Source of the DNA: Iphione sp. A-MEVVRFRX5
Taxonomy: Eukaryota
Direction of reading: 5' to 3'
DNA: 64,000 nucleotides
Assembly: GCA_976226885.1 (NCBI GenBank)
Contig: OZ320317.1
Span: forward strand, 60,202,001-60,266,000
In this document: in pieces, positions 16,961 to 43,699 of the stretch
How the letters are laid out: every line of letters begins with the position of its first letter
Position numbering within the stretch: the first letter of the stretch is position 1
The notes under the pieces: generated by a model
The model's input: only the letters and a program-made list of their open reading frames with translations
Told to the model about the DNA's origin: nothing
Databases searched by the model: none
Made by a program: the position numbers and the translations under genes

Positions 16961-19584
16961 GACACAAAAAAAACATGCTACAATCGCAGTGAGCATGGAC
17001 TTAAAAGACGAGAGATGTGCTACTGTGCTTGATCCTGGAAATATGTAGTCTAATTGTGTGCATGATAAAACAGACACTGTTCGTTACAGTGCAAGGAGTG
17101 AAAATCGTTTGCTGAAGAAACCTCAATTAATAACTCACAGTTGCTGTAGTTAATTAATGACGGATGGAACATTATTTGAATGAATTTCCATTACTTTGTG
17201 ATAAGATTGGGGAGTTAATTCTATCAAAATGTGATTTCGTGAACTTTCAAAAATAGTTGTTGGTCCGGCGTTTGAATTCACTTAAAAAGTGTTAATTCTC
17301 TTCTGCACTTAAACATAATGATTCTATTGATGAATGCTATTTGTTTCCTTTGAATGATTAAATCAGTACACCGAAGGGCTGTTCTAATATGAGACTTACG
17401 CAAGTCATTGTCACAAAAGATTTCAAACTGAGGCTGAGGGGTGTGACGGTGGGTGATGCCGGTGGGTGGGAGCGGAGCTGGGGTGTGGTGGGGGCAAGGC
17501 TTGGGGGTTTGACAGGAATGAAACACATCTGCTGCTGCTGGACCATAGTGAATGGGTTGTGCCGCGCTTATTATCATGTAACTGGGTCACTCGTGGCTAG
17601 CACATGGATACATTAGCGTCCCGCGATCAGTCTTTGTCTGAGCACTTCCTCGTCCTTGCAGTTGTCCTCACACGGGCTATAACGTCTAGGAACTTCCCTC
17701 TAACCTTTGAGGATGAATCATCAGCCTTCAGTCAGCCTGCACGGGCTCCAGACGAAGAACCTCTGGAAAGGTCCTCATTCATGAGTATCATCATTTTATT
17801 CAGAAAACCTATTAACATGTTTGATACCAGCACGGCAGCTTCATTATGAAAACTTTTGTATGTAGCAACCCTTAAAAATCATCATTTCATTTTAAAATTT
17901 TCTTTTAGAAATAAACGTAATGCCCGTAGTTGGGAGCCCACCATCACAAATTATGGCTGTCCCTCAATGGCGTTATCAATGAAATTGTGGCAAGGGCAGG
18001 GCGACGACAAGCACTATTCGCCAGTATCTACTTTAAAACTCACACCCATTGGTGACATGAATAAACGTTTACGAAATGTACACGGAGAACACGACGCAGA
18101 GAGCCCAAGAATAGAATTACGCCAGATGTTACCAAGATATACAGACAATATATGTAGATTTGTATTCCCATCTAGCTTGTTGTGGCTCCGGTGCGCCTCT
18201 ATATCTTAGACACAGATTATTATTCAATCAAGATTCAAGATTTAAGAAATTTTTATTAACCAAGTCTCCACTTTTACATAGAGCTCTTCTTAATTAACGA
18301 ATGAATCTATATGTGCTCAACAGTACATCAGGAATATTGTATGTAGCATGAACGAACTATCCTGTATCAATACACGCGATAAAAATATATGATATATTAG
18401 CAAAAACGTATCTGAGAAAGATTAGTACACGCACCATAAAGCAACGAAATCACAGATAGATGAATTTCCATTCGCAACACTATTCCCAGGAGGACAAGAT
18501 GTTTTGCCCATAGCTAATCTTGTACTTTCAGACATCTAAGCATAGACAGGTATCACAGAAATATATTACCGCTGAATGAAGATTGCAAAAAATTACAATT
18601 GTGGTAGAGAACTGCTGTTCTGTACGACGAGACGTGAATAAGGACATTTGTATTTGTATTTGTAATTTACATAAAGGGATCAAGCCTTTACGTCAGTATT
18701 GCAGGTAGTCTACAAATATATCTTGATCATCTGAAAGTTCACATTGATCACAGGAGGTGTATAAAAAATGTAGTGGGTTACAATAGTCATATACATGTAT
18801 GCTTTTGACTACACTACAAATTGCAAGTTCTAGTATCAGCTTACGACCGAAACAATGTCGCGTTAGTTATACTGACGCACACACCAAACACATAAGGTCC
18901 CCCGGGGAGTGTCAGACCAAGAAATATGACTTTTGTTAAGAACGAGACAGAAAGATTATACACTATGACGCAATGTATGCTCGCAAAAATCCAACAGCCG
19001 GATCATGGGTAGCCAGGCGTCTCTTTATTGCAGTGCAGGAAATAGACGTTTGAAACAGTAAGTTGTCTTGTCGCATGCACTGAGTGCTGAACACATCACG
19101 CCATATTCCAACAACTGCTGACATAAGCCGTGCATGGCTCGGACAGCGGCCAAGCCACAGGACCATGAGAAGCGATGGTCAGCGATATTGCTGCTCCTCC
19201 GCAGCCCTTTTGACCTATCGCTCGGTGGCTTGGATATTGTCCAACACAGGTTGGGTGTGGAGGGGGGGGGGGGTTTCAAGTTGTCGCCGATAACACATCA
19301 CCAAAACTTCAAAATGCCCATGTTGCTGAAAAGAGGAAGCAGATAACGCTTCATCAAGAATTGTTTCTCTGATAGCGCATCACCAGTAAATCCTAAATAA
19401 CATTTGGTGCACAATTTAAAGGGCAAACAATGGTTCGCGGGGAATTAAAAGCCCCATTGCCGCTTCCATAAAATAGTTCATACGCCCTGTTCCAACCTTC
19501 AATTGTCTTTGCATCATGGAGCCACTAAAACCTTGGTAAGTGGAGGTCATGTCTGCTTATAGTACTGTTTAAATTAGAGTGGTG

Positions 19585-19681
19585 AGTAGTAGTAAATAGT
19601 AAGCAGAGAATAGTGTGTTGACTATGCTAATAAGATCAAACATTTTCCCCCCCACCCTAAGCCCCTCCCAGTGGGATCTGT
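19585..19681 (+). repeat. Left terminal inverted repeat (97 bp)
   Basis: Exact reverse complement of 41867-41960 except for one extra terminal AGT unit. Confidence 0.95.
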
Positions 19682-19952
19682 TTATTCGGGAACTGGGCTA
19701 GCCACGACAAGTGTATGCATAGTGTACATAAGTGCTTACCACCATCAGAAAGGTTTGGACGAGAGCTTTCCAAACCAGATGTGAACCGGTGAAGGTTGTT
19801 AACGTAAATGACAGAATGGGGGCTATGACTTGAGTTCACTGGGTGGTGGAATAGTCCATGTGAAGGTGGGGAAGGTAGCGGAACAGACATGTGAATATGG
19901 GAAGGAAGGCTAGCGTGACAGAGCTCCCTTTCTTATGACTCGGAGGATTGTG

Positions 19953-20050
19953 TCCCCACATTCAATCCCCACCTCAAGCTTGAGGTGGGAATTGAATGTG
20001 GGGAAGTGTTTTATCTTTGGTTTTGATTTCAGGAACCCCTAGGGGTTCCT
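19953..20050. repeat. Two subterminal palindromes (52 bp and 20 bp)
   Basis: 19953-20004 is TCCCCACATTCAATCCCCACCTCAAG|CTTGAGGTGGGAATTGAATGTGGGGA (26-bp arms, 1 mismatch, no loop). 20031-20050 is AGGAACCCCT|AGGGGTTCCT (perfect). Confidence 0.9.
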
Positions 20051-20379
20051 TCCAAAAATTGTGATTTGCTTTCCAGTTGTAGTTTCTCCTTATCCTTATT
20101 GAATGTGTGGGTATCGGTTTCACGTCGTTGTCACTAATTTTTTTGTAGCACGCAGGAGGTGTTTTGAAGGGCGAATGCGATGAATTTAACTTACAGTAGT
20201 GCTAGAGAGGTTTAAAATTCCATTCTACCTACCTAAACTTTGTAGAAGTGTTTGTCCTTTAGTTTTCTTGCTTGTAAGATCTTTTAGATATACTTAAAGG
20301 TGTATATATGAGCTTCAGTCTCGCTGACTCTTCCGAAACTGTCCTGCAGCGCCAAAACCTGCTGTAGTAAGTTTGGGAA

Positions 20380-20580: not shown

Positions 20581-20637
20581 ACAAGTAGATGAAATGTTTC
20601 TTAACCCATAACGTGATCTGACTAATTTTTTGGTGAT

Positions 20638-20796
20638 TATTCAGTATACAGAGTAAATATCTGATCCTGCGTGAAAGGACTTCGAGAATGTTTTCTTAAC
20701 CTACAATACGATCTATATTCAGTATACAGAGTAAATATCTGATCCTGCGTGAAAGGACTTCGAGAATGTTTTCTTAACCTACAATACGATCTATAT
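20638..20796. repeat. Perfect 78-bp tandem duplication upstream of polB
   Basis: The unit TCAGTATACAGAGTAAATATCTGATCC...CGATCTATAT starts at 20641 and again at 20719. Confidence 0.92.
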
Positions 20797-20907: not shown

Positions 20908-23900
20908 ATGGAAAGTAGTTTGAGTGGATGCGCATGGAGTGATATTGCTCTGGAGAATTATGTTGAATCCTGTTACGACGCTGACAGATTGCGCTCGTGG
21001 GCAAGATCTGAAGGATTATTGGATCACCCAATTGTTATATCTAGACTTCAGGAACTGGACAATAATGTGGTAAGTAATAGTCAATTAAGATTTTTAATAA
21101 TAATAATAATAATAATAATGATGTTCATAATAATTTCTTTTTTCAATTGTAGATCTCTCAACCTAGTGATCAATTTTGTTTCTCAATGGAGGAGTGGAAG
21201 GAATTACTGTCTAGCTTTGACGATATGGAGGAACTGAATGACTTTATAGTTAGCAACAATCTCCATATAGATGGAGAGGTCCAGAAACGGAGACAAGAAC
21301 TGAAGGAGGTAAGTATTGATTTAGATAAAGTTAAAAGTTCTTTCGCTCTATATATTTGCTTTAGTCTATTGTTGATTCATTTCTCTTCTTTTTTCTTTTT
21401 ATAGCAAAGCCAAGATCGCAACGGAGAGACAAGGCATGAGAGAAATAAGCCTGAAGAATTTACATGTAGAAGCTGTCACTCACATTTTAGTTCAAGACGT
21501 GAGCTTTATTTACATCAGGGACTTCAACATGGAGGAGGAGGGTCTAATGAATTTCAAGACGTTCCATGGCAAACCAAAGCTCCTTGGGTGAATGATAATG
21601 GTGATATTGATGATGACTTGAAGCGAACCTATGATGCTAATCGAAAACATATTTTAAGTTCTCATGAGCATGGTATTATAAATAGCGTGTATAATTTTCC
21701 TACCAATGATTTGGAGAACGGGGTGGGTGAATTAATGCAACATTTTGATGAAGTATACGTACAACAAACAGAAACATTTAAAATGGATATCGCCTTTGGA
21801 ATGATTTTACAGCATGCTGAAACGGAACAGTATCGTTATTTTATCCCATACCATAATATAACTTTATTTGGAGCTCCTGTTAGCTTATCTTCAATTAGAG
21901 ATTTGGATTTGATAAGACAGAGGATTAGAAATTTGGATTTGGAACTCTATTTTAAGCAACAGAGACCGGACACTAAGTGGAAGCTTGTTTTAGTAACCAA
22001 CATTGTCTATTATGTTACTAAAACAGGGCATTTGTTGGGGAAGGGTGTTCTACCAGACTATGTTAAACGTAAGCATTGTATTGAAGGGCTTGAACATCCT
22101 CCAAATAATAGGAAGCATTATTATAATGATTCTCTTTGCATATTTCTCTGCCTAGCTCTCCACAGAGGACAGAATCATAATATTGCAAGTTCTGTAAGGG
22201 TATATTATGATCAATGGCGAACATTTTTGGGTGGTTCTATTCCTCGCAATGCTAAACTTTATAAAGGTATCCAGTATGAAGAACTAACAGATTTTGAGCG
22301 CTGTTTCAATGTCTCTCTCTATATCTATGAATTACAACCCGATGATGTTGCTGTTTTACGCTATAAACCTTCAACCAGATTTAAATCTATTATGTACCTT
22401 AATCAGTATGCCTCTCATTTATCTTTTATAATAAACTTTAATGTATATGCTTCAAAATTTCAGTGTGAATCATGCAAGAAGCATTTCAGTCGTCATTTTA
22501 ATTTTAAACGTCATATAGTTTCCTGCGAACATAGGACCAAATATAATTTTCCAGGAGGCTTTTTCACACCTCCTCAAACAGTATTTGAAGAGTTGGAACA
22601 ATTTGGTATAAATGTTAGTGCTGAAGACAGGTTCTTTCCATGGTTCGCAGTTTTTGATTTTGAAGCGATTTTAGAAAGGATCGAGGAGCAAAGTTCCCAA
22701 AAATTATGTTGGAGTCAAAAACATCAGCCTGTATCAGTATCATTATGCAGCAATGTTGATGGTTTTGAAGCAGCTCATTGCATTATAAATTCAGATTTAG
22801 ATGAGATCTTGCAACAAATGTTCAATTATCTTGAAGATATACAAAGAACTGTTCACCATTTAGCCAAAATGAAATGGGGTAGATATTTAGACGAGCTGCT
22901 TTCAATGATGAAAGCTTGGGCTCCTGATCAAGGAGAGGAGGAGGAGGAGGAGGAGGAGGAGGAGACAGAAGAGGAGGAGGAGGAGGAGGAGGAGGAGGAG
23001 GAGGGCTTAACTCATGAGGGTAATTTGTTCATGTTCCGTCAACTAAAGATGTTGAAGCAAAAATTCATTAACTATATGGAACAGTTACCAGTAATTGGTT
23101 TTAACTCATCGAATTATGATATTAACTTGATTAAGTCTAAGTTATTTGGATATTTTGAGTTTGAGCAAGAAGGTAACCATGGATATGTAATAAAGAAAAA
23201 TAATTCATATTTAAACATATCTAATGATAAGTTCAGATTCCTTGATATATCTCAATTTTTAGCACCTGGCTGCTCGTATGCAAAATTTTTGAAGGCGTAC
23301 GAAGTAGAAGAGACCAAAGGCTTTTTTCCATATGAATACTTTGATTCATTTGATCGACTAGCTGAAACTTCTTTACCACCTCATGATGCTTTTTATTCAA
23401 ATTTAAAGGGTTGTAATATTTCTGTTGAAGAGTATTCATGCCTTCAAAAGGTTTGGCGAGAGGAGAATATGCAAACATTTAAAGATTTTCTAGTCTGGTA
23501 CAACAACAAAGATGTACTACCATTTATAACTGCTTTACACAAACTTCAAAATTTTTATTTTGAAAGAGAGTTGGATGTATTTAAAATAGCGATATCTGTT
23601 CCAGGAATAGCAAGGCGACTCTTATTTCAATGCTGTAAAGATTCAAAGGCATATTTCCAAATTTTTGGTTCTGAAGATGAAGATTTATACAGAACTTTTA
23701 AAAAGAATATTGTAGGGGGTCCTTCTGTCATTTTCAAGAGATATCACAAAAGAAATGAAACATTAATACGGGGAAGAAAAATATGCAAAAAGATTCTCGG
23801 ATTTGATGCAAATGCATTATATCTCTGGGCGATAGGTCAGGACATGCCTACAGGGATTTATGTCAGACGATTGGAAACAACAAGCTTTTGTCCAGAAAGA

Positions 23901-26517
23901 CAGACACGTTACATCAAAATGTTTCAGTGGTTGGACTGGAGAGCTAGCTATGATGGAGTGACTATTGCTCATAAACTCAATAGAGGATATGAGAAAAGGA
24001 TTGGGCCATATTGTGTGGATGGATTTTGTTCTGAAACAAATACTGTATATGAGGTGAATATGATACACAGGTCTTACATATATTATTTTTTCTGAATATT
24101 TTAGTTAGTAATGAAATGATTGTTAAAACTACATAAATTCATATATTTCTTTATTCAGTTTCAGGGTTGCTATTTTCATGGTTGTGAGAAATGTCAAAAA
24201 GACAGAATGACTGAAGTGGAACGTCTTAAACGCTTCGAACGCACTAAACAGAGGAGTGCTTATATCACTGCATTGGGTTATAACTTAGTTGAGATCTGGG
24301 AGTGTGATTTTGATCTGTTATGCCTTTCTGAACCTGCGCTGAGAGCTGTGGATGTCTTACCACCCTTTTCGAGGATTCACTCTGGAGAATTAACGAAGGA
24401 GGATATCATTCAGGCTGTAATCAGCAGAGAATTATTTGGTGTTGTGGAAGTAGATATTCAGGTTCCTGAGCAATGGCCAGTGGGATTTGAAAGAACCTGT
24501 GGTCCTAAAGAATATTTTGAGGAAATGTCTCCTCTGTTTTGTACATCAGAGATTCCCTTTGAGAAGATGGGAGAACATATGCAGACTCATGTGAGAGAAC
24601 ATGATCTATCCCAGGTATGAATATTACATAGTTATATAATTAATCTTGAAGAAATTATATGCTGGCTGAAAGCTTTCAATATGTGGTTCTTTTTTCAGAA
24701 ACCTAGGAAACTTTTGCTCAATGGAATGAAAGCTGAGAAAATTCTGTTAGCCACTCCTTTATTGCAATGGTATTTACAACACGGTATGGAGGTAACTCGC
24801 GTCTACCAGCTGATTGAATTTTCCAGGAAGAAATGTTTTGCTTCATTCAAGGATGAAGTTACAGATGCTAGAAGAATGGGGGATATAGATTCCTCCAAAG
24901 CCATTATAGCGGATACTATGAAGCTAATCGGTATGTGTGGGAAAGGTTTTAGAGTTCAGTTAGAGAGTTATATTTAATATAGATATAGAAGTTTAGAGAT
25001 ATTTGGTTTTGACAGTATTTCTTTTTTTATCAAATTACTGAAGAGCACTCATTCCTTATTTCAGGAAATAGCGCCTATGGTTCACTTATAATGGACAAAG
25101 AAAAACATCAGAATGTTAGCTATATTACTGGAAAGAGGAAGGCTTGTTTGGCTGCCAATGAGATATATTATCGTAAAATGAGTGAACTGGATGGTGATCT
25201 ATTTGAGGTGGAATCCGTCAAAAGGAAGATAATTTTAAATCTTCCTATTTACCTGGGCTACTTTATTCTTCAATATGCCAAGCTGCATATGTTGAGATGG
25301 TATTATGATTGTTTGGATGTTCTGGTGGATCGCTCAGACTTCGAATATATTGAAATGGATACAGGTATGTAGCATAGATCTAATAAAACCATAGCTGAGG
25401 AAGATATATTTTGTTGTATTTACATCTTTATTACTTTATTCTTTCAGATTCTGCATATTTTGCTATTTCCGGGGATAATTTTGAATCTGTGATAAAAGAA
25501 GACAAGAGGGAGCACTATTTCAGTGAGGTGAATGGTTCGTGCTCTTCATCATTATCATCTCTGCTAGAGGCTGGTAGATGGTTTCCACGTGATTGTTGCA
25601 ATGAACATCGTATCTATGATAAGAGAACTCCTGGACTCTTCAAATTAGAAGCCTCAGGTAGCGAAATGATTGCTTTGTGTAGTAAAACTTACATTCTTAA
25701 AACAAATGATGATTACAAACTGAGTTGTAAAGGTATTAACAAGAACAGCTTAGAAGATCCAATGGAAAAGTTCTGCTCTGTACTGAAAACAGGTCAGTCA
25801 GCATCTAGCCTTAATAGAGGGTTTCGTGCAAGAGGTAATACCATATTTACATATCAGCAGAGTAGAGCTGGATTATCTTACTTTTATTGTAAGAGGGAAG
25901 TGTTAGCTGATGGGATTTCCACAAAACCGTTAGATGTAGTATTAAGCCCTTGGCATATTCCACAGTATTTTATTTTCAAGGGAAAAGCAAATCCATTATC
26001 ACCTGATTTTCCATCGAGAATGTATATCTTCAATCAGGTCTTTGATAGTGCACGTGATGCTTACAATCATCAGCTGAAAATAATGAATCATGTAACAGGG
26101 GCTTTTATAAATGAAAAGAGACTGAAACTAACAGAAGTGTGGTTGGAAAAGCGTATTTCCTTAATGAGGGAAATTATTCTGGAAAAAATGAGGATCAGTG
26201 AAGAGGTTCGGCGATCATTAAGGAGAAGCGAGGACTTGGTTCTAGTATATTCTGTTTCAGATAACTATTGGGGAGCAGGCATGAATCAGCGGTTAGTTTC
26301 ACTATCGACCAGCTTTCGCGGGAGTAATATGTTGGGAAAATTGTGGGAAGAAGTACGAGAATTGCATGTAGAGGAAATACACAAGTCCTATCTGTTACGC
26401 TGTTACCACTGTAATTCTAAGAAACCTGATGTTAGGTTCCGAAGGGAATCTGAGAAAGATTTATGTGAGCAGTGCAATAAAAAAAATGAAATGTACCTCT
26501 TTTTGATTTTCTTCTAA
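20908..26517 (+). CDS. polB: Protein-primed family B DNA polymerase, 7 exons, ~1674 aa, with C-terminal NADAR-like domain and C4 zinc ribbon
   Basis: Exons 20908-21069, 21153-21308, 21405-24053, 24159-24614, 24699-24930, 25065-25364, 25448-26517 total 5025 nt; all junctions are GT-AG and in phase. Motifs: ExoI VFDFEA, ExoII GFNSSNYD, ExoIII YNNKDV, PolA FDANALY, PolB KLIG|NSAYG, PolC EMDT|DS. Two zinc fingers and a YE|FQGCYFHGC nuclease-like insert are also present. Confidence 0.93.
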
Positions 26518-26572: not shown

Positions 26573-27197
26573 ATGTATGAACTTCCTGAGTATGTATTTC
26601 AATGTCCTACAACAATCACTATTAGTGGTTCAACAGGATCTGGTAAAACTTCATGGGTAAAAAAGCTATTATGTAATCCTAGTCTGTTTAGCTTACCACC
26701 CAGTAGAATAATATACTGCTATGGAACCTGGCAGGATGCTTTTGATGATATGAAGAATGTTGAATTTCGAGAGGGGTTGGATATTCCTATGGACACAAAT
26801 GGAGAACATATTGTTCTCATTTTGGATGATCTGATGAATGAAGTTATCAAGTCTCCATCAGCTGAATTGTTGTTTACTAGAGGATCTCATCATAAGAATA
26901 TAACTGTAATTTTTATCGTTCAAAACTTATTTCAGCAGGGAAAGTCTGCACGGAGTATAATGCTTAATACACATTACATGGTTCTCATGCAGAACCCACG
27001 TGATATTCAACAAATCAGAGTGCTTGCCAGACAGTTGGGGATGGAAAACTGTCTCGATCTTTCTTATAAGTTCTTATATGTTAGTGCCCTATGGTTATTT
27101 ATTGGTTGATCTTTCACCGCATAACATCAGAGATTTGAAACTCAAAACTGCAATATTTCCTGGAGAGACTACCATTGTCTATCTACCCAAGTACTGA
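26573..27197 (+). CDS. A32/FtsK-like packaging ATPase with an apparent +1 frameshift near 27086
   Basis: Walker A GSTGSGKT, Walker B LILDDL, GSHHKN, VQNLF..G..ARSI.LN. The conserved C-terminus PYGYLLVDL...IFPGE is in the next frame. Confidence 0.88.
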
Positions 27198-27199
27198 GA

Positions 27200-32260: not shown

Positions 32261-32478
32261 TAAACTTAGAATGAATAGTATCATTATACAACATGTATTC
32301 ATTAGAAATAAAAAAGAAATGTATCCAGCAAAATACTTGTTTATTATATATTCTGTTGAAATCTCTTGAATTCTCACAACCTTTATATGAGGCAAAAAAA
32401 AGTAAAAGAAGCTTTTTGAATGAAATACGCAGGTGATATATATATATATACCTGTGCTCAAAGCAACTGAACGATAAA

Positions 32479-33600: not shown

Positions 33601-33648
33601 TGAGAAGATGGATTCTCCTATGCAAACCTGTAAAGGTTTCGAGCTAAA

Positions 33649-33885
33649 TTAAATGTCCTGAGGAGCTCGATTCCGTAAATTATACCTGTGAGTTCTATTA
33701 CGTAAATTATATCCATTTTTGTGAGGAGTATTATCTGCTCCTGATAGGCGTCGTTGCCGTCGTCTTCTAAGTCCTCTCATATGTTCGTTGTCCGCATCAT
33801 TTACAGCAGCTATTACACGGTGATTTTCTACGTCTTGATATCTCATTCGCGCCGCCATCTCCTCCCTCATTCTGACTGAAAACAT
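33649..33885 (-). CDS. Small basic peptide with tandem YNLR.R chromatin-binding-like motifs
   Basis: 78-aa ORF ending RRRRQRR...NGYNLRNRTHRYNLRNRAPQ. A TTTTCAG acceptor at its 5' end suggests an upstream exon, or a start at Met 33870. Confidence 0.65.
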   Translation of the reverse strand: MFSVRMREEMAARMRYQDVENHRVIAAVNDADNEHMRGLRRRRQRRLSGADNTPHKNGYNLRNRTHRYNLRNRAPQDI

Positions 33886-34523
33886 ATATTCAAAGATAAT
33901 AAATTATATGAATCAAGTCAAATTGTTAACAAGCACCAAAAGAATTGAGTACAGGAGATAATATTTATTGTGAGCCAAAAGAATTGGTTACAGGATATAA
34001 TATTTATTGCTAAATCAAATATATTTCATCTTAGGAATTTTTTATTTAAATAAGTTAAACTGATAACAGCTATTGATAAATTTTGGACTAATTTATAGAA
34101 GTTAGATACATAATAAGAAACTGAGAGTTCAAGAAATTCAGATATAAAAAAGATTTAAGTGTATGAAAATTAAGATGGGAAAAAAAAAGAAAATTCGTGC
34201 CTTACACCTATGTCTCGCATTTATGTCAGGAAGCAGATCGATCTCGTCATCTACTCCGTTGTAAACACTACATGAAATATAATTAATCTCTTGTGAATTT
34301 TGTGTGAATTCACACTACATAGAGATCATAGACGGAAGCAAATCGTTTACTCCAAATAAAGTTACTTTAAACAAAGAAACAATACTGATAAGTTATGTAA
34401 CCTTTAAAATGGAAGCAAATCAACTACTTCAGACAGAAGTTATATTAAATGACCCTAGTACACTTTTTTGCTAAGTTAAGTAGATATTTACGTTTATTAT
34501 TAATATTTGGTATTCATCAATCT

Positions 34524-35330
34524 TTATGAAGATACATACTGATTCTGATATGCATGTCCATGTTCGGGCGCTCCATCAAGAGGTAGCTCCATCGCGCCCA
34601 ATCCTTCAATCTGCCCATTCAACGCACCCAGCATCATCGCCTCCTGGATATTTCTTCTATTTTTTTTACAATAGCGATGGACATAAACTAGAGCTGCAAT
34701 AATCATGATGAAAATCACAGCCAGTCCAACATATAACAAAATCCATACTTTGTTTTCAATTGGACCCATTCCATTATCCGCATGCTCTGATGTCGTAGTT
34801 CTTGACTTAGCTGGACTCAATCGAGGGTTAATATCATCTGTATCAAGCTCATCAGTATTACGATGAATACTTTCCACCAAACTGCCCTCGCCGTCTGGAG
34901 CTGGGCCAACAGTGTCATAATATTCAGTGTCATGATCATCATCATCAGTAAAGTCATTCGGAACAAGCTCCCTCTCACTAGAGGAGGAAGAGGACTCGCA
35001 ATCTGATTTGATTGCAAGTTGCTCGTGGCTTTGAATTCTGCTGCAGGGAATATCCGTATTTCGTACATCAATGAGCAGAGTTTGAGGAAATAATTTGTAA
35101 ACCAGTGTCAAGTTCAATGTGTCCAGTTTCGAATAGCGGAAATCCAAATACCTGAATCCGTAAAACTCCTTTCCCGCTACAAGCAGCGAGCGAATCAAGC
35201 TAGTTATAGGAATACTCCGGCAAAGTAGTCGTGAACCCTTGCATCTGCATCTTTCACACAAGTCATTAGACTGAACAGATGAAATTAAAATAACACAAAC
35301 TAAAGAAGAGAAAACGAAAAATTTTGCCAT
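34524..35330 (-). CDS. Type I membrane protein 1: signal peptide, short LRR module, acidic Ser/Thr stalk, TM, Tyr-containing tail
   Basis: LRRNT-like CERCRC.GSRLLC, LRR-like LDFRYSKLDTL and LIDVRNT.IPC, TM VWILLYVGLAVIFIMIIAALVYV followed by a basic stop-transfer segment. Confidence 0.85.
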   Translation of the reverse strand: MAKFFVFSSLVCVILISSVQSNDLCERCRCKGSRLLCRSIPITSLIRSLLVAGKEFYGFRYLDFRYSKLDTLNLTLVYKLFPQTLLIDVRNTDIPCSRIQSHEQLAIKSDCESSSSSSERELVPNDFTDDDDHDTEYYDTVGPAPDGEGSLVESIHRNTDELDTDDINPRLSPAKSRTTTSEHADNGMGPIENKVWILLYVGLAVIFIMIIAALVYVHRYCKKNRRNIQEAMMLGALNGQIEGLGAMELPLDGAPEHGHAYQNQYVSS

Positions 35331-35747: not shown

Positions 35748-36404
35748 ATGGTCACTTCTCCCGAAAGAATCAAAACTCCTAATATAATATCATATTATTG
35801 GTTGAGGGAATTTGAAGACGAATCTAAACACGGTGTTCGCTTTCTACATGAATCAGTAGGAGAGAGAAATGAATTTCCACCTAATTCCATAATATTACAA
35901 TATTATCGTTGGTGTTTAAGAGACTATGAAATGAATATTATATATGTTAGTGAGGATGTTTTCCTTTTAAGAGAGTTGTGTGATATCATTGGAAAAAGAG
36001 CTTATAATTCAGCTATGTTCAGGGGCTTCATCTGTGAAAGTGATAAGATATACTTTATTCAACAGAAACCACATATTTATGGAATTATTACTGAAATAGC
36101 TAATCGACCAGATAGGGTGGATGTTATGAAGAAGGTATACACTTATTTGTTGCATCTTGAATTCAGCAAATTAATTAGCTTAGACTTCATCATAGAAAAT
36201 CTATTTGAGGAATATGCAATATACTGTCATCTTCAAATAAACTACAAACGACTGGCGAATGCTAGTTCCTATATGGCTAATTTCTTCCAAGTTGAAAGCT
36301 ATTTCAGTTTTAAAGAAACTACAGATTTCCTCAATAATCAAAATCCTGCGTCCACACTGCGTGACGTAGCATCACAAAAAATTTATGAATTTACATTCAT
36401 CTAA
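35748..36404 (+). CDS. Unknown family, paralogue P1 (218 aa)
   Basis: Shares YYRWCLRD...IYVS.D.FLLR.LC...G.RAYN, MK.VY.Y.L, RLA....Y and Q.P...IYEF with P2 and P3. Confidence 0.85.
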   Translation: MVTSPERIKTPNIISYYWLREFEDESKHGVRFLHESVGERNEFPPNSIILQYYRWCLRDYEMNIIYVSEDVFLLRELCDIIGKRAYNSAMFRGFICESDKIYFIQQKPHIYGIITEIANRPDRVDVMKKVYTYLLHLEFSKLISLDFIIENLFEEYAIYCHLQINYKRLANASSYMANFFQVESYFSFKETTDFLNNQNPASTLRDVASQKIYEFTFI

Positions 36405-36728: not shown

Positions 36729-37791
36729 ATGGAGAGGTTAAGTTCAAAAGTACAGGTTAAGGAAGAGGACGGATTCTTGAAAATTGTACGCCGAAAATAT
36801 GATAAAGTCCGCAATGTTGCGGTTCCCATGGAGGTTATTTCATGGGCATTAGAAAACCAGAAATTTATCCTGGAAGCAAAGCTGTCGTACGCAGGAGACA
36901 AGATGATGGAAACAATAGTTCCAGATTGGAAGGTGATGGTCTCGTTCTTCCTAAACGAATTTTACATTGGTTTCAACAAATATATCAATGGAGAAAGAAG
37001 CGGGTAAGTTAATTATATTTATATATTAATATTATTATTTATCTATACATCAACTTTAAATCTAATTAAATGCCTCACGTTAACCACAATATCTTCATCA
37101 TCATTAAATCTTATATCATCATTTCCTCCATTTCAGAATGGATTCCATAAATCTTCATGTTGATGAATTCAAAAAATTGGTTGAAATTAATGAAATAGAG
37201 AAGGGAATGCCCCCACAGAAGAAAATGCGACGAACATATCAACGTTGGCAGTATGAAGTTGTCGACTACAAGGGCGTCAGTTTGATCAAATCTAATTCAT
37301 GGTTCCTATCGCAAAAAAGAGCAAGAGAAGAGGCTATGGTTGTAAAGGCTAGCTTTGAAGAAAAAAGTGATATCAAAGATGATACCACACTTAAGGCAGA
37401 CATAGAAATGTTTTGTCAAGAACTACTTTTACCCTCTGCTAGTCAGATCGCTGAGAAAGTTTATAGCTATATTTTGAGGAAGGAATTTGAAAGCAGAGTC
37501 AATCAGCTATATAGCGGTTCTAACTATACTGTTCTACAAATAGATGAAAGTAGCTCAGGTGAATTAGTCAAGTATCCGGAACATCTATTCAGAGAACATG
37601 CAAAGCCCTGTCATTTGAGAATTTCACTACCAAGATTAATGGAAGGTTGTAATATAATTACTCGTTATTACGGATTTGATACACTTGTTACACATATGGA
37701 AGCATTGCAGGTGCTCAAAAGAGCACAACCTTTTGAAGTGTTGAAAGCAAATAAGCCTGATTTTGAAAATGAATATGCACAGCTTGATTAA
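36729..37791 (+). CDS. Spliced PC4-like ssDNA-binding domain fused to divergent paralogue P4 (~309 aa)
   Basis: Exons 36729-37003 and 37137-37791; the intron 37004-37136 is GTAAGT...TTTCAG, phase 2, and joins in frame. The join creates VMVSFFLNEFYIGFNKYINGERSG|MDSINLHVDEFKKL, which is PC4-like. The C-terminal part has KVYSYIL..EF and RLMEGC..I..YYG. Confidence 0.72.
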
Positions 37792-38118: not shown

Positions 38119-39051
38119 TTATACTTCTGTTTCAAGCATATTTGTTTCAATCATATTATATATGTCATTATAAAATCCATAATAATCAACTACTGCAACT
38201 CTCTTCTTACGAAATTTTCTCACAAGAATAACCGCTATTAAAACTATTATTATTATAAACAATAATGGACATAACACCCAAAGAACAATATTCACAATCG
38301 GAATCCTATTGGTTCCATCTGTACTTCTTCCAGTTGAGTTCATAAAAGTTGTACCGACGCCCTCTTCAGTGATAGTAGTCGCAGTTGAGTTGAAATACGG
38401 TTTACTACCACCCTCCTCAGTGATAGTAAAAGTTGTGAACGACCCAGTTGACCTTGTTGTAGTTGTGTCACGCTCAGTCAGATAACTGAACGTTGAAGAA
38501 GCGCTCGAAGATACAATAGTAGCAGTAGTAGTGGGTTTAATAGAAGATGAGTTAGTACGTAATGTAATATTAGCAAAAGAAGAAGTGATGAATGCTGTGG
38601 TTGTGGACTTCGTAGTAGATCTGCTTTCTGAAGTAGTAGTAGTAGAAAGTAAATCTGTACTAGGTTGACTATATCCATATGGAGAAGAAGAAGAAGAAGA
38701 AGAGGAGAAATATGTTGAGGCCGTAGATGCTGACTCACGCTCACAGTTCCATAGCAAAGTAAAGTTCACTGTTAATGGAATAGATTCGCAGGCAAAGTTA
38801 CTCCACTGATTCCGTATATCGAGTAGTTGCAATACCTGGAACTTTTCAATTATATCCATTCGTAGTTGTGACATTTTACACCAGCGCCAATCGAGATGAG
38901 TGTACTGGCGGTTAATTGGGATGAAAAGTGACTGCGGATCCACTCTTCTGCATGTAATAGTGTCCCATACACACGAACAGATTTGGCAAATACTGTTTTG
39001 TGCATATCCATGTGATATGAGTATAAGCAGGAGAATAATGCATTTTTCCAT
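38119..39051 (-). CDS. Type I membrane protein 2: signal peptide, short LRR module, mucin-like Ser/Thr stalk, TM, tail ending ETEV
   Basis: CQICSC.WDTITC, LDWRWC.MSQL, LLDIRNQ..NFAC, ~140-aa S/T-rich stalk, TM IVLWVLCPLLFIIIIVLIAVILV followed by RKFRKKR. Confidence 0.87.
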   Translation of the reverse strand: MEKCIILLLILISHGYAQNSICQICSCVWDTITCRRVDPQSLFIPINRQYTHLDWRWCKMSQLRMDIIEKFQVLQLLDIRNQWSNFACESIPLTVNFTLLWNCERESASTASTYFSSSSSSSSPYGYSQPSTDLLSTTTTSESRSTTKSTTTAFITSSFANITLRTNSSSIKPTTTATIVSSSASSTFSYLTERDTTTTRSTGSFTTFTITEEGGSKPYFNSTATTITEEGVGTTFMNSTGRSTDGTNRIPIVNIVLWVLCPLLFIIIIVLIAVILVRKFRKKRVAVVDYYGFYNDIYNMIETNMLETEV

Positions 39052-39323: not shown

Positions 39324-40106
39324 TCACATAGTAATTAGTTCATATATTGTTGTACTACTTTCATTTAGACCTGCAGAATATATAGGATCCTGTGCTTTAA
39401 GAAATTCCTCAACTTCTGTAAAAGTGAAAGTTTCACTCAATCCATAAAGCATAGAGATATATGCACAACCACTAGCCAATCGATTAACAGTTATGCGAGT
39501 ATGAGAAGACATAAGACAAATTTTATAATTCTTACTATTTATAACCATTCTAGTTCTTGTTCTCTGATACTCATCATCCAACATATAATAATAAACCATT
39601 TTCATAATACTCTCCTTAGTTACTGTTGGAGGATATTCAGTGATGACTCCAAAGTCTTCAATCTTGTCAGCTGTAAGTCGTGAACTAGGCTTTGATTGCT
39701 CATATACCCTCCCCAAAACCTTAACACAATTATATGCTCTTCTACCCATAATGGTACATAAATCTTTCAAGAGAAATATGTCATTACTAATGTAAACAAC
39801 ATTATGATTCCGATCCCGCAGATACCAGCGATAGTGAGCTGGAGGTGAAACTTTTGGGTATACATTTTGCACTCCACCAAAACCAGCTCTTAAATTCATA
39901 TGATGTTTATCTTCTTCAATTTCCTTTATATAACACTTAGTGAAATAGTCTATTTCATCAGTACTATCATGAGATCCATCCAGGTCACCGTCAGCTTGAT
40001 GATCCGCAGGCAAACTTGATTCATAGGCAATATGATCGAGCTCCATGTTATGTTCAAAACCTGGCGATGTTGACTGTACCCACTCCACTCGTAAACTAAG
40101 CTTCAT
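39324..40106 (-). CDS. Unknown family, paralogue P2 (260 aa)
   Basis: HYRWYLRD...VYISNDIFLLKDLC.IMGRRAYN, IMKMVYYYML, RLASGCAY, QDP...IYEL. Confidence 0.85.
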   Translation of the reverse strand: MKLSLRVEWVQSTSPGFEHNMELDHIAYESSLPADHQADGDLDGSHDSTDEIDYFTKCYIKEIEEDKHHMNLRAGFGGVQNVYPKVSPPAHYRWYLRDRNHNVVYISNDIFLLKDLCTIMGRRAYNCVKVLGRVYEQSKPSSRLTADKIEDFGVITEYPPTVTKESIMKMVYYYMLDDEYQRTRTRMVINSKNYKICLMSSHTRITVNRLASGCAYISMLYGLSETFTFTEVEEFLKAQDPIYSAGLNESSTTIYELITM

Positions 40107-40141
40107 ATAGTCAGACAGAGTTATATATTCCTGAAAGATAT

Positions 40142-40792
40142 TTATAACATTCTAAATTCATAAATGTTACTTAATACCTCTACTGAATGCGTCACAATTG
40201 GATTTTGAGCAGTTAGAAACGCACACACCTTCTCACAATCATAGTATGAATCTAAACAATATAATGTTGCCACATATGCACATGCATTTGCTAAGCGTCT
40301 AGGAGTTATTTTAGAATGAATCTTCGATAACAAAAAATCAATATTTTGCAGATCTACAAGCACTCTCTCTTTAAGTCTTTCAAAATCATTATTCAAAATG
40401 TAAATGTAAACCTCTTTCATAATTTGTTCTTTAGTCGGTATTTCTTTGAAAGACGTTATTATATCATAAAAATGTGGAACTCCTTCTAATACCTCCTGCT
40501 TAAATCTATCATGAACCCAGCCATTAAAACAGGCGGTATTAAATGCTCTCCGCCCCATAGCATTACATAGATCCCGCATCAGAAATATTTCATCACTAAC
40601 ATATATAGTTTTCAAGTTAACATCTTTTAGACACCAATGATAATATTTCACCATCTCATCTTCATTTGAATATTCATCTATCACCCCCGAGCTGCCATCA
40701 TCATCATTCCCCATATCATACCTATCCTCCTCCACTTCCCTATAATAATATTCCATATAATAATTGAATTCATTTTCTTCTTCTTCCTCCAT
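40142..40792 (-). CDS. Unknown family, paralogue P3 (first ATG at 40792; the ORF track starts at TTG 40828)
   Basis: YYHWCLKD...IYVSDEIFLMRDLC.AMGRRAFN, IMKEVYIYIL, RLANACAY, QNP...IYEF; acidic N-terminus. Confidence 0.85.
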   Translation of the reverse strand: MEEEEENEFNYYMEYYYREVEEDRYDMGNDDDGSSGVIDEYSNEDEMVKYYHWCLKDVNLKTIYVSDEIFLMRDLCNAMGRRAFNTACFNGWVHDRFKQEVLEGVPHFYDIITSFKEIPTKEQIMKEVYIYILNNDFERLKERVLVDLQNIDFLLSKIHSKITPRRLANACAYVATLYCLDSYYDCEKVCAFLTAQNPIVTHSVEVLSNIYEFRML

Positions 40793-40826
40793 CACACTTT
40801 TATATTTACCAAATGATACATTATAC

Positions 40827-41120
40827 AAAAAGTCGGCCCCCGTGGTTCAATGTCCTTTCTATACTAGCTTCCACCTGTTCTCCTCCCATCTTCAACATTG
40901 AAGTCAACGTCATAACTCCATGTTGGATATCCTAGCTGTCCAACATGAACGACAATCGTCTCAGCCTGCTCTGTCAGGATGCACAACCAGACGGCTGAGC
41001 CAGGATAAACACCGCTACCTATTTTCTTCACGTTGGCCGGTGAGGGAGTCGAACCCTGCTCATCACTGTCTCGTATCTGTTGGACGGAGCGCCCTGCGCT
41101 CCGAACCACGGGGACCGGCT
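40827..41120 (-). ncRNA. Candidate RNA polymerase III transcript (~290 nt), VA-RNA/EBER-like
   Basis: A-box-like GTGGTTCGGAGCG at about +12 and a B box GGTTCGACTCC at 41055-41045. The 5' end (41119-41103) pairs with the 3' end (40848-40832) over 17 bp, with one mismatch and one G-U, immediately before TTTTT. Confidence 0.65.
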
Positions 41121-41560
41121 GAAAGTGCAGTAACAAATCACTTGGTGGTTGCTATGCAGAGACACTAACCCCATCTGGTGTTTCTCCCTGGTAGTTAGAG
41201 GGATTTCTACCCTTCGTAAACAATAGATGGCGGTAAAAACGATACAGGTAAGAAAATTATACATACTTGCAAAGATATGGAAAATTAATCAATTTCTTTC
41301 ATCTTCAAGATATTAATCTATTCTCATGGGAAAAACTACAGTAGAATTAATACATACCACAATCAAACGGCGATTTCACAGCCCCATTCACTTGAATTGA
41401 GCCTTGTATTCAGGAAACACCATTTCAAGCTATGTCCAGGGTTTATGAGATTTCATCTTCATCACCGATAAAAAATAACTCTTGCCTAAAACATGGCAAA
41501 CAGAGTATACAATAACCGCATCAGGCTGAAAGAGCTCAGCTTGGTCGGATCCTAGCCGTC

Positions 41561-41764
41561 ACTGTCTCGTATCTGTTGTACGAGACAGTTGGATCCAGAT
41601 CTCTTTACAGAGGTCACCTACTTAACCAAAATTAACTTCTTTCACTCTGTTCTTCACGTAGGCTAGTCTAAAGTCATGTCTGCCTTCCCTCCCTTACGTC
41701 TCATTTATAAATCATTCCACCTCTTTCCTTCCCTTAATTCCATACTTGGACTCGTCCAAGTATG
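41561..41764. repeat. Right subterminal hairpins
   Basis: 41561-41589 is ACTGTCTCGTA-7-TACGAGACAGT (11-bp stem). 41741-41764 is CATACTTGGAC-2-GTCCAAGTATG (11-bp stem). Confidence 0.85.
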
Positions 41765-41866
41765 TCACTTTCACGCAACGTATGAGCTACGTACATTCGG
41801 TTCAAGCTATGGCTCGCGTTCACAACCAGGGGTGGGCTCACTCTCTCAGAGTCAATATATGCAAAG

Positions 41867-41960
41867 ACAGATCCCACTGGGAGGGGCTTAGGGTGGGGGG
41901 GAAAATGTTTGATCTTATTAGCATAGTCAACACACTATTCTCTGCTTACTATTTACTACT
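41867..41960 (-). repeat. Right terminal inverted repeat (94 bp)
   Basis: Reverse complement of the left TIR. It ends ...TATTTACTACT, followed by the TSD GTGGTG. Confidence 0.95.
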
Positions 41961-43699
41961 GTGGTGACACATGGCTCTCACTGCTAGAAGAAGTAGTAAG
42001 GGTGTGGTGTTTCTTTTTAAAGACTGAGCTGGCAAAAGGAGCTGTTACATCACAGTAGCAGAGGATTCTGGGGGAATTCGAGGCTACTGGGGGTTTTGCC
42101 CAGCTGCCAGTCAGGAGGCAGGGCCAGGGCAACCATTCACTTGTGGGTGGCTTGCAGGGCGGTGCTCATCACTCGAGCTTGGTTAGTCTGGCTGCTTCCT
42201 CCCTGCTGCAGCATGGTTGGTAGGGTGGGAGGGGGCTCTGACATATACTCAGCCAGTCTGACCGCTAACTGACTGCTGGAGGGTGCGTCTAGGGTGGGAG
42301 GGGGCTCTGACACATGGGTGTGCATGGATACATGTGCTGTCATTACCCCTAGCAGTGAGTCCCAGTGTATGCGCGGAGGTCTCTTGAAGTGACTAAATCT
42401 ACTCTACTGCCTCTGCTACCACCACTGGCCTCTATCAAGTATGGCATCGAACCAGACCACACCGCTACAAGCTCCACAGGCCCTGGTGCCAGAGCCTCTG
42501 ACACCCCTAGCACCGGCATCCCCACAGCTAACTCCAGTGCCACCGGTAGGCCCTGAGGCCCCTGAGCCAGCTCCAGTTGGGCCGCCACCAGCCTTTTCAC
42601 AAGGGGTTCCCCAGGAACTCCTTAACAGCATCGTTGCGGACATTCAGAGGTCAGACATTATGTCCAAAAGGCTGGATGGCATCGAATATATGATGGTCAA
42701 GATGATGGCCTTGGTGGAGGACCTGAAACAGCAGGCCAAGAACCTATCACATACACAGCCCCAGCTGACCTCTGTGCAACCACCAGCCCCACAGCCCCAA
42801 GCAGTGCTGGCTTCAGTCCCACAGATGGCAGGTCCTTCACCGTCCAACCAGCCTCTGTCTGGAAGACCTCCAGAATCAATGCCACGACCCAGGAGGTCCC
42901 GCTACAGGGACTTGCTGACCACCCAGTCTCCCTCCTTCAGGATCCCCTCCTCACTGTCGTTGACCTCCAGACAGCCTACAGGCTCTTTCCAGTGTGTTCC
43001 ATGGACTGAAACCTCGTGGCCATCCAGCTCCCAGTAGACACCTACGTGTACCTGGCCCTCCTATTCGGGCTGAGAAAGAGTGCCTACTACATGCAAAAGA
43101 TCACAGAATTCATATAGTTAGGGATCTAGGGGCAGACGGTGTGAAGGCCCTCATGTACTTGATGACATCATCCTCCAGGCCTCCACTGCGACCGTGGCCC
43201 AGCAGGCCGTACAGGCCACCCTTACCCTCCTGTCCTCACTAGAGTTTAAGGTGGCCAAGGATCAGTGCCAGCATCTGGCTACCAGGGCCACTTGGCTTGG
43301 CATCTAGGTGGACACAACAGATAGGACTCTCTCCCTCCCAGAGGAGAAGCTCCGTGTCTACCGCTTCCAGTTCACTGAGGCATCTGTGCTCGCCTCTATG
43401 TCTCTTCGGGCCTTCCAGTCACTCATTGGGAAGATGAACCATGTTGGTCATCCGGCTGGCACGGCTGTACATGGCCCACCTCCCGGAGTTTCTCCATGTG
43501 GCCCCTTGGGGTCCCATCCCCCCTGGACTACACAGTGCGAGCTGACCTCTGCTGGCTCTCCTACCTCTCAAAACACTTCAGTGGGGTCTCCTATGTATAG
43601 GTTAGAGACCAGTTGGGGCTGTCTATCTGAGTTAGAAAGCGAGGCCATTAGGCCGAGACTTCTAATTCAGATAGAACCAGCCGGTATCTAACCAACTTA

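Follow-up and report, generated by a model that had tools for sequence, protein, structure and literature searches.

In a Maverick element of Iphione sp. A-MEVVRFRX5, the DNA polymerase gene is predicted to consist of seven exons, separated by six AT-rich introns with GT-AG ends, and not of a single open reading frame (ORF). These introns are the main feature of the element; its size, its accessory region and its IAP gene are of kinds already known for Mavericks. All coordinates are positions in the window, the 64,000-nt stretch of contig OZ320317.1 that we analyzed. We consider it likely that the element is a recently integrated, nucleus-adapted Maverick (polintovirus) of the pPolB2 type, with a polymerase transcript spliced by the host and an accessory arm that grew by duplication.

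The polymerase gene and its predicted introns

The gene (20908–26517, + strand) encodes a pPolB2-type DNA polymerase that is protein-primed, with a VSR-like insert and a NADAR domain at its C-terminal end; the seven predicted exons hold 5,025 coding nt and would yield 1,674 aa if spliced. Read without splicing, it is split across six ATG-initiated ORFs of at least 80 aa, and the longest stop-free stretch is 896 aa (786 aa from an ATG). An initial annotation had described all core ORFs as open except for one ATPase indel; the indel was borne out, but the polymerase is open only once the six introns are removed. Of the 7,999 candidates that we scored, 431 qualified as relatives at E ≤ 0.001, several of them carrying PF03175, and named homologues came from Solemya, Mytilus, Pinctada, Tegillarca, sea cucumber, sea urchin and amphioxus. 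A Pfam search of single polymerase exons gave zero direct matches. Within the VSR insert, exons 3 and 4 align with P0057, named a very-short-patch-repair endonuclease by its source; this stretch is absent from one group of related loci.

All seven exons are stop-free and one frame is kept through the introns, which total 585 nt and have a GC content of 0.14–0.28 compared with 0.37 in the exons. In sequence, the predicted introns have the features of U2-type spliceosomal introns: GT-AG ends, a pyrimidine tract and a preserved frame. Introns 1 (21070–21152, 83 nt, GC 0.14) and 2 (21309–21404, 96 nt, GC 0.24), like the others on the + strand, are predicted from splice signals and frame, without homology; of 120 proteins, two matched exon 1 weakly and none matched exon 2. 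Intron 3 (24054–24158, 105 nt) lies in the VSR-like motif and is common to the three nearest relatives; the three nearest proteins (57–66% identity) stop or read through at this point. A second acceptor that keeps the frame, at 24164, has the higher score but agrees less well with the homologues. Intron 4 (24615–24698, 84 nt) is followed by intron 5 (24931–25064; phase 1, 134 nt), which interrupts motif B of the polymerase, and by intron 6 (25365–25447; phase 1, 83 nt), which separates the catalytic residues of motif C.

Homologues crossed junctions 3–6 within 2 residues in 86/102, 94/94, 75/75 and 66/66 cases, respectively. The 16 exceptions at junction 3 comprise 15 proteins with a 5-residue insert and P0001, in which 30 intron-like residues are read through. 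Introns 3–6 were found again, at exactly these positions, by a homology-guided search run blind. We also scored all sites with a splice model whose training set was 23 introns from other loci. Among 1,533 AGs, it placed five of the polymerase acceptors at rank 9 or better and the remaining, weakest one (intron 5) at rank 64; among 1,125 GTs, the six donors took ranks 1, 3, 5, 14, 21 and 34.

The element, its core genes and its accessory arm

The element spans 19585–41960 (22,376 bp). Comparison of both ends confirmed the perfect target-site duplication (TSD) and identical terminal inverted repeats (TIRs) reported earlier: GTGGTG lies at 19579–19584 and 41961–41966, and the arms at 19588–19681 and 41867–41960 are complementary at 94/94 nt. 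The left end (19585–19681) carries one extra AGT triplet before its 94-bp TIR, so the termini read (AGT)3 on the left and (ACT)2 on the right, a motif that matches the AGT-repeat termini of Barreat and Katzourakis (PMC8097293). The 6-bp TSD and AGT-repeat TIRs, together with genes for a family B polymerase, integrase, packaging ATPase, major capsid protein and adenain-type protease, place it among Mavericks/Polintons. Inside the left end lie a subterminal palindrome (19953–20004; 26-nt arms, 96% complementary, z −7.8) and, upstream of the polymerase start, a perfect 78-bp tandem duplication (20638–20793).

The proposal that the element is young held up. TIR identity alone bounds neutral decay only at 3.1%; however, the 15,087 coding nt, with 828 nonsense target sites, contain zero premature stops, which bounds it at ∼0.4% and supports a recently integrated Maverick copy. 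Its 22.4-kb length had also been set against a usual Maverick length of about 15–20 kb. The length was right, but intact vertebrate Mavericks span 12.7–24.6 kb and mostly have accessory regions (PMC8097293), and size and arm by themselves are ordinary for the family.

Downstream of the polymerase, the core continues on the + strand with an A32-type packaging ATPase (26573–27196; Pox_A32, E 1.8e-5), frameshifted near 27,070–27,090, and a 140-aa single-BIR, IAP-like protein (27200–27622; BIR, E 1e-18). Two small ORFs of 105 and 155 aa (27731–28512), with weak matches in related elements, occupy the place of pm/pz, before a 365-aa retroviral-type integrase with a chromodomain (28509–29606; rve, E 3e-12; Chromo, E 6e-9). 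The 127-aa product of 29667–30050, 27–40% identical to same-place ORFs in related loci, is presumably the minor capsid protein (penton), judging from position and motif; the basic 123-aa protein at 30100–30471 sits in the place of pw. The 443-aa double jelly-roll major capsid protein (30468–31799) has an atlas score of 0.98 (229/256 features) to clusters in which 14–30% of members carry PF21738 (DJR-like), and is 24–35% identical to capsid-position ORFs in related loci; its own structure model was unusable (pLDDT 30). The 153-aa adenain-type protease (31799–32260) matches Peptidase_C5 at E 0.034, below the cut-off, and has His, Asp and Cys motifs in order and 30–44% matches in related loci. 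An LxCxE motif was found in none of 20 ORF pieces tested.

From the protease stop to the right TIR, the arm measures 9,606 bp, in line with the 9.6 kb first given, and sequence to the right of the protease makes up 43% of the element. Its description as accessory genes holds in part: six main genes are present, yet they take up 4,740 of the 9,606 bases (49%), and 32260–34500 is mostly nested repeats (direct repeats of 45–124 nt, 73–92% identical, at 32458–33608, without a long ORF). By composition, the arm appears to be neither host DNA nor a chimera, since it matches the core and not the flanks: GC is 0.359 in the arm, 0.357 in the core and 0.43 in the flanks; GC3 is 0.31 in arm and core and 0.73 in host genes; and the tetranucleotide correlation of the arm is 0.94 with the core and 0.82 and 0.75 with the flanks. 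A blastn comparison of element and flanks gave zero matches. These results support a viral origin for an arm that appears to have been enlarged by duplication.

One family, putatively PC4-like, accounts for four of the six main arm genes, with one full-length form predicted to be spliced and three truncated paralogues. The full-length gene (36729–37791, + strand, 309 aa) has two exons, a predicted intron at 37004–37136 (133 nt, phase 2), a putative PC4-like N-terminal domain and the arm-family domain. Its paralogues lie at 35748–36404 (+ strand, 218 aa, without the PC4-like domain), 39324–40106 (− strand, 260 aa) and 40142–40792 (− strand, 216 aa), and a distant member occurs in L073, a related element of 14.6 kb that has terminal repeats, which also supports a viral arm. 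For the putative PC4/Sub1/PUR-type nucleic-acid-binding fold, a four-strand sheet plus helix, the structure model is that of a relative, P0133 (pLDDT 81), not of the arm protein itself; that model matched Pur-alpha (Z 7.5, rmsd 3.8, 86 aligned), PC4 (Z 5.9, 2.5, 62) and MoSub1 (Z 5.6) within an overall Z range of 5.4–7.5, with a best Foldseek E of 0.083. Exon 1 of the arm gene itself was empty in a Pfam search and reached z 3.5–4.9 to three full-length relatives, with no match to three other proteins. The putative nucleic-acid-binding fold of the full-length form suggests that the family may be a replication or transcription helper.

The two remaining genes, both on the − strand, encode the membrane glycoproteins noted at the outset: a 268-aa type I membrane protein with a cysteine-rich cap and one TM segment (34524–35330), and its 310-aa paralogue (38119–39051; E 7e-8), also type I, with a Ser/Thr-rich stalk (52%), 5 N-glycosylation sequons and one TM segment. 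The arm also contains, as claimed, a predicted Pol III-type unit of ∼288 nt (40827–41119, − strand, z −5.3), with a loose A box and, near +64, the sole consensus B box in the element. A 15-bp stem joins its two ends (pair probability near 1), a T5 run follows directly, and the first T4 comes after this stem. A hairpin cluster at 41520–41610 holds an 82% copy of 39 nt of the unit. Adenovirus VA RNA, a decoy that diverts defences based on double-stranded RNA or RNAi, has internal A and B boxes, a long stem linking its 5′ and 3′ ends, and a T-run terminator. The predicted unit shares the type 2 Pol III promoter, terminal stem and T-run; it differs in length (∼288 vs ∼160 nt). Rfam gave no VA RNA family match, either for 22.5 kb at E ≤ 1 or for 1.1 kb at E ≤ 10, and the VA-like layout occurred in 0/103 related loci.

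The arm had been read as an adenovirus-E3-like host-modulation cassette, which would make it the distinguishing feature of the element. Two paralogous single-TM proteins with signal peptides, one with a mucin-like stalk, the VA-like unit, and a BIR protein elsewhere in the element would all suit such a cassette. However, the BIR gene sits between ATPase and integrase, inside the core and outside the arm; the Pfam matches include no E3-type family; the 310-aa ectodomain has zero homologues at E 0.01 among 249 candidates; most main arm genes are of the PC4-like family; and accessory regions (PMC8097293) and IAPs (in adintoviruses; PMC8502044) are known already. We think this reading unlikely.

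Introns among related loci and their probable repeated gain

Twenty-three introns passed our filter, in 11 of 103 related loci; among the 78 loci holding the VSR insert, 13 have introns (11 by filter and 2 degraded ones by eye). Introns are not required in this virus group, since 54 of the 61 loci covering all four sites lack any. An exonic G precedes 25 of 27 introns, and AG precedes 16 of 27. The positions are clustered (P0003 numbering: 826.0, 828.0, 828.1, 830.2; 1061.0, 1062.1, 1062.2, 1065.2; 1164.0, 1164.1): 14 of the 20 distinct positions have a neighbor within 15 nt, compared with a mean of 4.0 under a uniform null (P 1.3e-4). The clustering persisted under a null confined to the top-half-conserved columns (P 0.003) and was weaker under one confined to the most conserved quarter (P 0.057).

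Monophyly of the 19 intron-bearing rows among 50 was rejected (AU p 1e-50), while a single clade was compatible for the six rows sharing intron 3 (AU p 0.52). The clade of this element had a support of 98 in a 167-row tree, which takes in the Tegillarca proteins and leaves out the Jeong et al. reference sequences, and no starred support in the 50-row tree. Intron-bearing loci that do not form one clade, with the same motifs interrupted at slightly shifted positions, point to repeated gain of the polymerase introns.

Alternatively, a few ancestral introns could have been inherited, slid by 1–14 nt in some lineages and been lost precisely in most, with no repeated gain. Near-identical positions do recur among loci, an unrooted tree does not separate gain from loss, and intron sliding has reportedly been described in Drosophila (PMC2891723). 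However, intron-bearing rows are nested among intron-free ones and amount to 16 changes on the 167-row tree (unrooted, and counted without a shuffled-label control), so that inheritance would need many exact losses in an element that is made of DNA and lacks reverse transcriptase. Nor do introns at adjacent positions have any common sequence (0 same-site pairs among the eight best-scoring). We judge this history improbable and favor repeated gain.

We also considered that the introns form a regulatory switch, in which retention at motif B or C, or the AATAAA of intron 6, gives a dead or truncated polymerase and the provirus stays latent until splicing changes. The catalytic motifs hold three of the four C-terminal introns, in keeping with the clustering of positions; the acceptor of intron 5 is the weakest; and intron 6 has its AATAAA at 25382. 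On the other hand, one AATAAA per 585 nt of AT-rich intron is about chance (12 on the same strand in 22 kb), the splice sites are mostly strong and constitutive-looking, and a retained intron with stops kills the protein at any site, so a switch would not need the motif position. Such a switch seems to us distinctly improbable. A reading of the inserts as random debris in a dead element, or of the arm as host sequence or a product of chimeric assembly, is largely refuted: one ATPase frameshift speaks for decay, against six GT-AG inserts with pyrimidine tracts, a single kept frame, a position common to relatives, an arm composed like the core, and agreement of both ends and the target duplication.

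Relation to known elements and proposed life cycle

Jeong et al. (bioRxiv 10.1101/2023.08.22.554363) described Polintons of the pPolB2 class, found in marine molluscs and in a marine nematode, that have a VSR nuclease insert. These resemble the element in core genes, size range (13–25 kb) and homologues from similar marine animals; the polymerase here differs by ending in NADAR, and spliceosomal introns are unmentioned in the sections of that preprint covered here. Because the survey set a minimum of 900 aa for the polymerase ORF, it would drop this element, since its longest stop-free stretch is 896 aa. Vertebrate (PMC8097293) and nematode (Widen et al., bioRxiv 10.1101/2022.07.12.499685) Mavericks share the 6-bp TSD, (AGT)2//(ACT)2 ends, eight core ORFs and accessory regions. 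Unlike those elements, this one has six polymerase introns and all core genes on one strand; both studies call the core genes intronless, and in nematodes introns are confined to captured cargo genes (Widen et al.). With six polymerase introns and an ATPase frameshift, the element falls outside "intact" as defined in PMC8097293 (eight conserved, intronless ORFs), a criterion of intactness and not of family. Adintoviruses (Starrett et al., PMC8502044) are likewise animal-tropic, with a chromodomain integrase, hexon, penton, adenain, FtsK-type ATPase and IAP homologues; splicing, exons and non-coding elements go without mention in the main text as covered here. Dinoflagellate Maverick-like proviruses bearing introners (bioRxiv 10.1101/2025.03.18.643946) are full-length, Polinton-like and have spliceosomal introns, but those are transposon copies, mostly gained after integration, whereas the introns here lack clear mutual similarity and one position is kept across 35–43% protein divergence.

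We propose that host RNA polymerase II would transcribe the 5.6-kb polymerase gene and that the host spliceosome would remove all six introns before active polymerase is possible, making replication dependent on host splicing. The lineage may have acquired the introns at G|-type exon contexts during residence in animal nuclei. They probably help the longest viral transcript, which is AT-rich, to be exported and to stay stable, and protect it from surveillance of intronless RNA; in human cells, HUSH silencing of long intronless transgenes is countered by intron insertion (PMC8770142). Introns may accumulate in catalytic motifs because only exact splicing or exact loss is tolerated there, so that gains persist. 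Duplication within the virus would have given the PC4-like nucleic-acid-binding helper, its three truncated paralogues and the two surface glycoproteins, and the Pol III RNA would most likely be a decoy for double-stranded-RNA or RNAi defences, as in adenovirus. Given the frameshift, this copy probably relies on a sister-copy ATPase for DNA packaging, unless the frameshift is a sequencing error.

More tentatively, and short of an even expectation, animal pPolB2 Mavericks may have acquired introns on many independent occasions, each time only a few bases away from the same catalytic polymerase motifs, and this lineage may have added a Pol III RNA like VA RNA and a family of PC4-like proteins that bind DNA. 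If so, they would include a hidden, splicing-dependent polintovirus branch that converges on the adenovirus lifestyle, is overlooked by ORF-length filters and offers a natural system in which to study targeted intron gain. Published surveys assume an intronless core and select for long polymerase ORFs, so that elements with introns either count as broken or are missed. If a Maverick does carry a VA-like RNA, this would be relevant to the origin of adenovirus Pol III RNAs. If the introns are spliced, these viruses rely on the host spliceosome, and their repeated, clustered gains would offer a rare, many-fold test of how introns originate and persist.

Predicted introns in the polymerase gene

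Judged from its sequence, the pPolB2-type polymerase gene of the Maverick (20908-26517, plus strand) is predicted to be spliced. The gene appears as six pieces in an ORF listing and resolves into seven stop-free exons in a single frame, 1,674 codons in total, separated by six GT-AG stretches (21070-21152, 21309-21404, 24054-24158, 24615-24698, 24931-25064 and 25365-25447) of 83-134 nt each, with a GC content of 0.14-0.28. When both strands were scanned under strict intron criteria, six candidates emerged across the element: five within the polymerase gene and one within the accessory arm. A splice model trained on other loci only gave the polymerase sites some of the highest ranks in the element. 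Among the 120 relatives listed (of 431), the junctions of the last four introns were spanned within 2 residues by 86 of 102 proteins (intron 3), 94 of 94 (intron 4), 75 of 75 (intron 5) and 66 of 66 (intron 6). The strongest donors belong to introns 1 and 2, for which homology gave no support. Introns 3, 5 and 6 interrupt what we take to be a VSR-like motif, polymerase motif B and motif C, respectively.

Three further features of the gene were observed. An AATAAA at 25382 lies within intron 6, just past where motif C is cut in half; such an occurrence is close to what chance would give in AT-rich DNA. At its end (25950-26517), the polymerase has a CxxC pair along with a NADAR domain (E 8e-12), an extension shared by six relatives among the 120 listed (P0027, P0058, P0062, P0073, P0099 and, judging by how it ends, P0070). 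An AGG repeat at 22931-23004 encodes a poly-glutamate tract, and relatives carry acidic inserts of varied length in the same place.

Candidate introns among related polymerase genes

We followed the introns through 103 related loci, made up of the 80 top-ranking metagenome matches out of 525 and all 23 matches from genome bins. Candidate gaps numbered 99, in 55 loci; 23 gaps in 11 loci passed the filters (a GT donor, a splice score of at least 13 and a GC content of at most 0.36), and of the 76 removed, 72 have lengths divisible by three and resemble coding inserts. An intron with a weak donor (locus L066, 985) was retained by hand, and one further intron was recognized by eye in two degraded loci. 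An intron was present at the VSR motif in 6 of 80 covering loci, at motif B in 5 of 79 and at motif C in 1 of 75, and of the 61 loci whose sequence takes in all four window sites, 54 had no intron across the region. In addition, 15 database proteins stop or read through at intron sites, which, from the protein sequences alone, is compatible with introns. For each of the three nearest proteins (57-66% identity), this happens at intron 3. A quickly built tree of 167 rows, the remainder of 216 after near-duplicates and spare outgroup rows were taken out, grouped them with the window polymerase (support 98); a 50-row tree gave this group no starred support.

On the 167-row tree, the intron-bearing rows required 16 changes. 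A single clade of all of these rows was rejected (p 1e-50); a single clade of the six rows with the intron-3 position was not rejected (p 0.52). The positions themselves were clustered: for 14 of 20 distinct intron positions, a neighbor lay no more than 15 nt away (P 1.3e-4 with a uniform null), and P was 0.003, 0.016 and 0.057 when the null was limited to the best-conserved half, third and quarter of columns, with none of these nulls taking account of shared descent. The exonic base preceding the intron was G in 25 of 27 cases. Comparison of introns with one another gave no clear similarity beyond AT-rich runs, the best pair being two introns of L066 (z 7.4).

Some of the loci were unusual in other ways. 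In L059 the intron at the VSR motif (1478-2814) is 1,337 nt long, ten times the usual length, and may hold a nested element or gene. The VSR stretch of ∼140 residues is missing, and the integrases are very divergent, in L041, L042, L044, L053, L062-L064, L067, L069, L071 and L099. L081-L103 are 23 contigs from bacterial genome bins that carry Maverick polymerase genes; a large share of the bins belong to symbionts of marine invertebrates, and the contigs are most likely host DNA within them.

In the accessible text of earlier surveys, intact Mavericks are described as lacking introns (PMC8097293) and their core genes as intronless (Widen et al., bioRxiv 10.1101/2022.07.12.499685). In the available part of Jeong et al. 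(bioRxiv 10.1101/2023.08.22.554363), the pPolB2 group that carries VSR is delimited by requiring an ORF of at least 900 aa; the element here, whose longest stop-free polymerase stretch is 896 aa, falls short of this length. Starrett et al. (PMC8502044) report IAP homologs, with splicing unmentioned in the portion available, and the accessible portions of Krupovic et al. (10.1101/2024.03.18.585575), bioRxiv 10.64898/2026.10.13.758929 and PMC10175614 contain nothing on polymerase introns. Literature searches on animal Mavericks returned no title on introns, Pol III RNA or PC4; Kapitonov and Jurka 2006, Repbase and supplements may hold spliced Polinton models. The nearest precedent in the text available to us is the introners of dinoflagellate proviruses (bioRxiv 10.1101/2025.03.18.643946).

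The element, its core genes and its age

The element is a genuine young Maverick of 22,376 bp (19585-41960), with a copy of GTGGTG at each side. Its 94-nt terminal arms match at every base, a 17-nt end motif occurs at only two places in the window, both of them element ends, and its GC content is 36% versus 43% for the flanks. The 15,087 coding nt, with their 828 nonsense targets, contain no premature stop, limiting neutral decay to at most 0.36%, a bound that is partly circular for the arm genes because their ends were read from the same copy. The single frameshift gives 0.1-0.2% under assumed indel rates, and the terminal repeats alone give less than 3.1%. Core ORF lengths are consistent with those of 14 long related loci.

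Downstream of the polymerase lie the integrase, ATPase, capsid and protease genes, all on the same strand, and a BIR gene also sits inside the core. The frame of the ATPase shifts near 27,070-27,090, where four homologs match one frame to residue 167-226 and another for their last 34-59 residues. An intron does not account for this break: the intron scan gave no candidate there, and homolog alignments on its two sides overlap or meet. Also rejected was a "major-late" scheme, in which each core gene would be preceded by a splice acceptor: the best acceptors within 120 nt of the nine core starts that follow the polymerase scored -0.4 to 6.6, compared with 3.0 (median) and 6.7 (90th percentile) for the background. 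PHROGs gave nothing beyond weak polymerase and NADAR-region hits, a single-sequence structure model of the capsid protein was unusable, and IMG/VR scans with the capsid protein and with the polymerase alignment found no relative.

The left end has three AGT triplets (the extra one at 19585-19587) and the right end two. Presumably, this uneven count is what the slide-back start of protein-primed replication would leave. A 78-bp perfect tandem duplication (20638-20793) just 5' of the polymerase start is very recent in origin or else an assembly repeat, and strong subterminal hairpins lie at both ends (19953-20004, 41561-41589 and 41741-41764). Left of the insertion are host polycystin-like exons (4742-9335) and a single-ORF sulfatase gene (14449-16305), with a flank-gene GC3 of 0.73. 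These genes mark the host as eukaryotic, and the named polymerase relatives make a marine invertebrate the most likely host. Two host satellites, of 126 nt (15 copies, 52692-54619) and 84 nt (6 copies, 55462-55987), have inverted copies nearby.

The accessory arm and a predicted Pol III unit

The initial annotation had put foremost the size of the element and an adenovirus-E3-like arm. This is mostly ordinary or unproven; Mavericks of 12.7-24.6 kb, most with accessory regions, are described in the accessible part of PMC8097293. The arm to the right of the protease, 9,606 bp in length and half coding, is like the core and unlike the flanks in GC, GC3 and tetranucleotide use; its CpG is less depleted (0.70 versus 0.46 in the core). 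The interval from the protease to the first arm gene contains nested direct repeats (32458-33608) and, next to them, a minus-strand arginine-rich frame of 84 codons (33649-33903) with no Pfam hit.

Four arm genes are paralogs; measured against the first, identity is 21-32%. Searching 1.84 billion proteins with a profile found 36 relatives (E ≤ 0.001), and none of the 24 tested showed a convincing Pfam family; a word-based protein search with one paralog found no match. Four relatives, of 312-344 aa, have an additional N-terminal part, which the ORF at 36729 resembles (z 3.5-4.9 for three, 0.7 for the fourth). A predicted phase-2 intron (37004-37136) links this ORF in frame to 37138, giving a two-exon gene (36729-37791, plus strand), and several shorter relatives start at the matching place, as expected if the intron is shared. 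In a model of the relative P0133 (pLDDT 81), the N-terminal domain matched Pur-alpha, PC4 and Sub1 at Z 5.4-7.5, and Foldseek gave E 0.083; we regard the modeled PC4-like match as moderate. The C-terminal domain had no clear match in fold searches, which also left unsupported a cyclin-like call made for the family by an atlas (score 0.83). A cysteine motif common among the relatives is missing from all four window copies. Weak matches to the family profile (E 6e-6 to 0.008) turned up in 4 of the 103 loci; one is a terminal 312-aa ORF of L073. This 14.6-kb contig (1-14635), with inverted terminal CTA/TAG repeats, a polymerase without introns and the distant 312-aa family member, is probably a whole related element. 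The two arm membrane proteins are also paralogs (E 7e-8), each with one TM segment. Their cap, which we take to resemble a leucine-rich-repeat N-cap, had no Pfam hit, and a word-based protein search with it found no homologs.

The Pol III RNA proposed in the initial annotation was supported, as a prediction. The sole consensus B box of the element lies on the minus strand at 41054, within a putative VA-RNA-like unit (40827-41119), and the first T run follows 288 nt after the start at 41119. Bases directly before the T run pair with positions 3-17 with a probability near 1, and 1 in 10,000 random 20-mers from the element paired equally well with the 5' end. The 291-nt strand folded better than 200 of 200 shuffles (z -5.3), while 33 tiled 291-nt arm windows, none in register with the unit, gave z -2.0 to +2.0. 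A tRNA reading was rejected, as ARAGORN found no tRNA and the first 90 nt fold no better than shuffles (z -0.66); we therefore prefer the 288-nt reading. No Rfam family fits the unit, exact searches gave no match for either the B-box region or the terminal repeat, and a layout scan matched in the window alone and in 0 of the 103 loci, which are distant and mostly partial. An 82% copy of part of the unit, at 41544-41582, is perhaps a second, decayed one. Overall, the specialist interest of this element would lie in its predicted spliced polymerase, in the clustered candidate introns of its relatives, and in its predicted VA-like unit.
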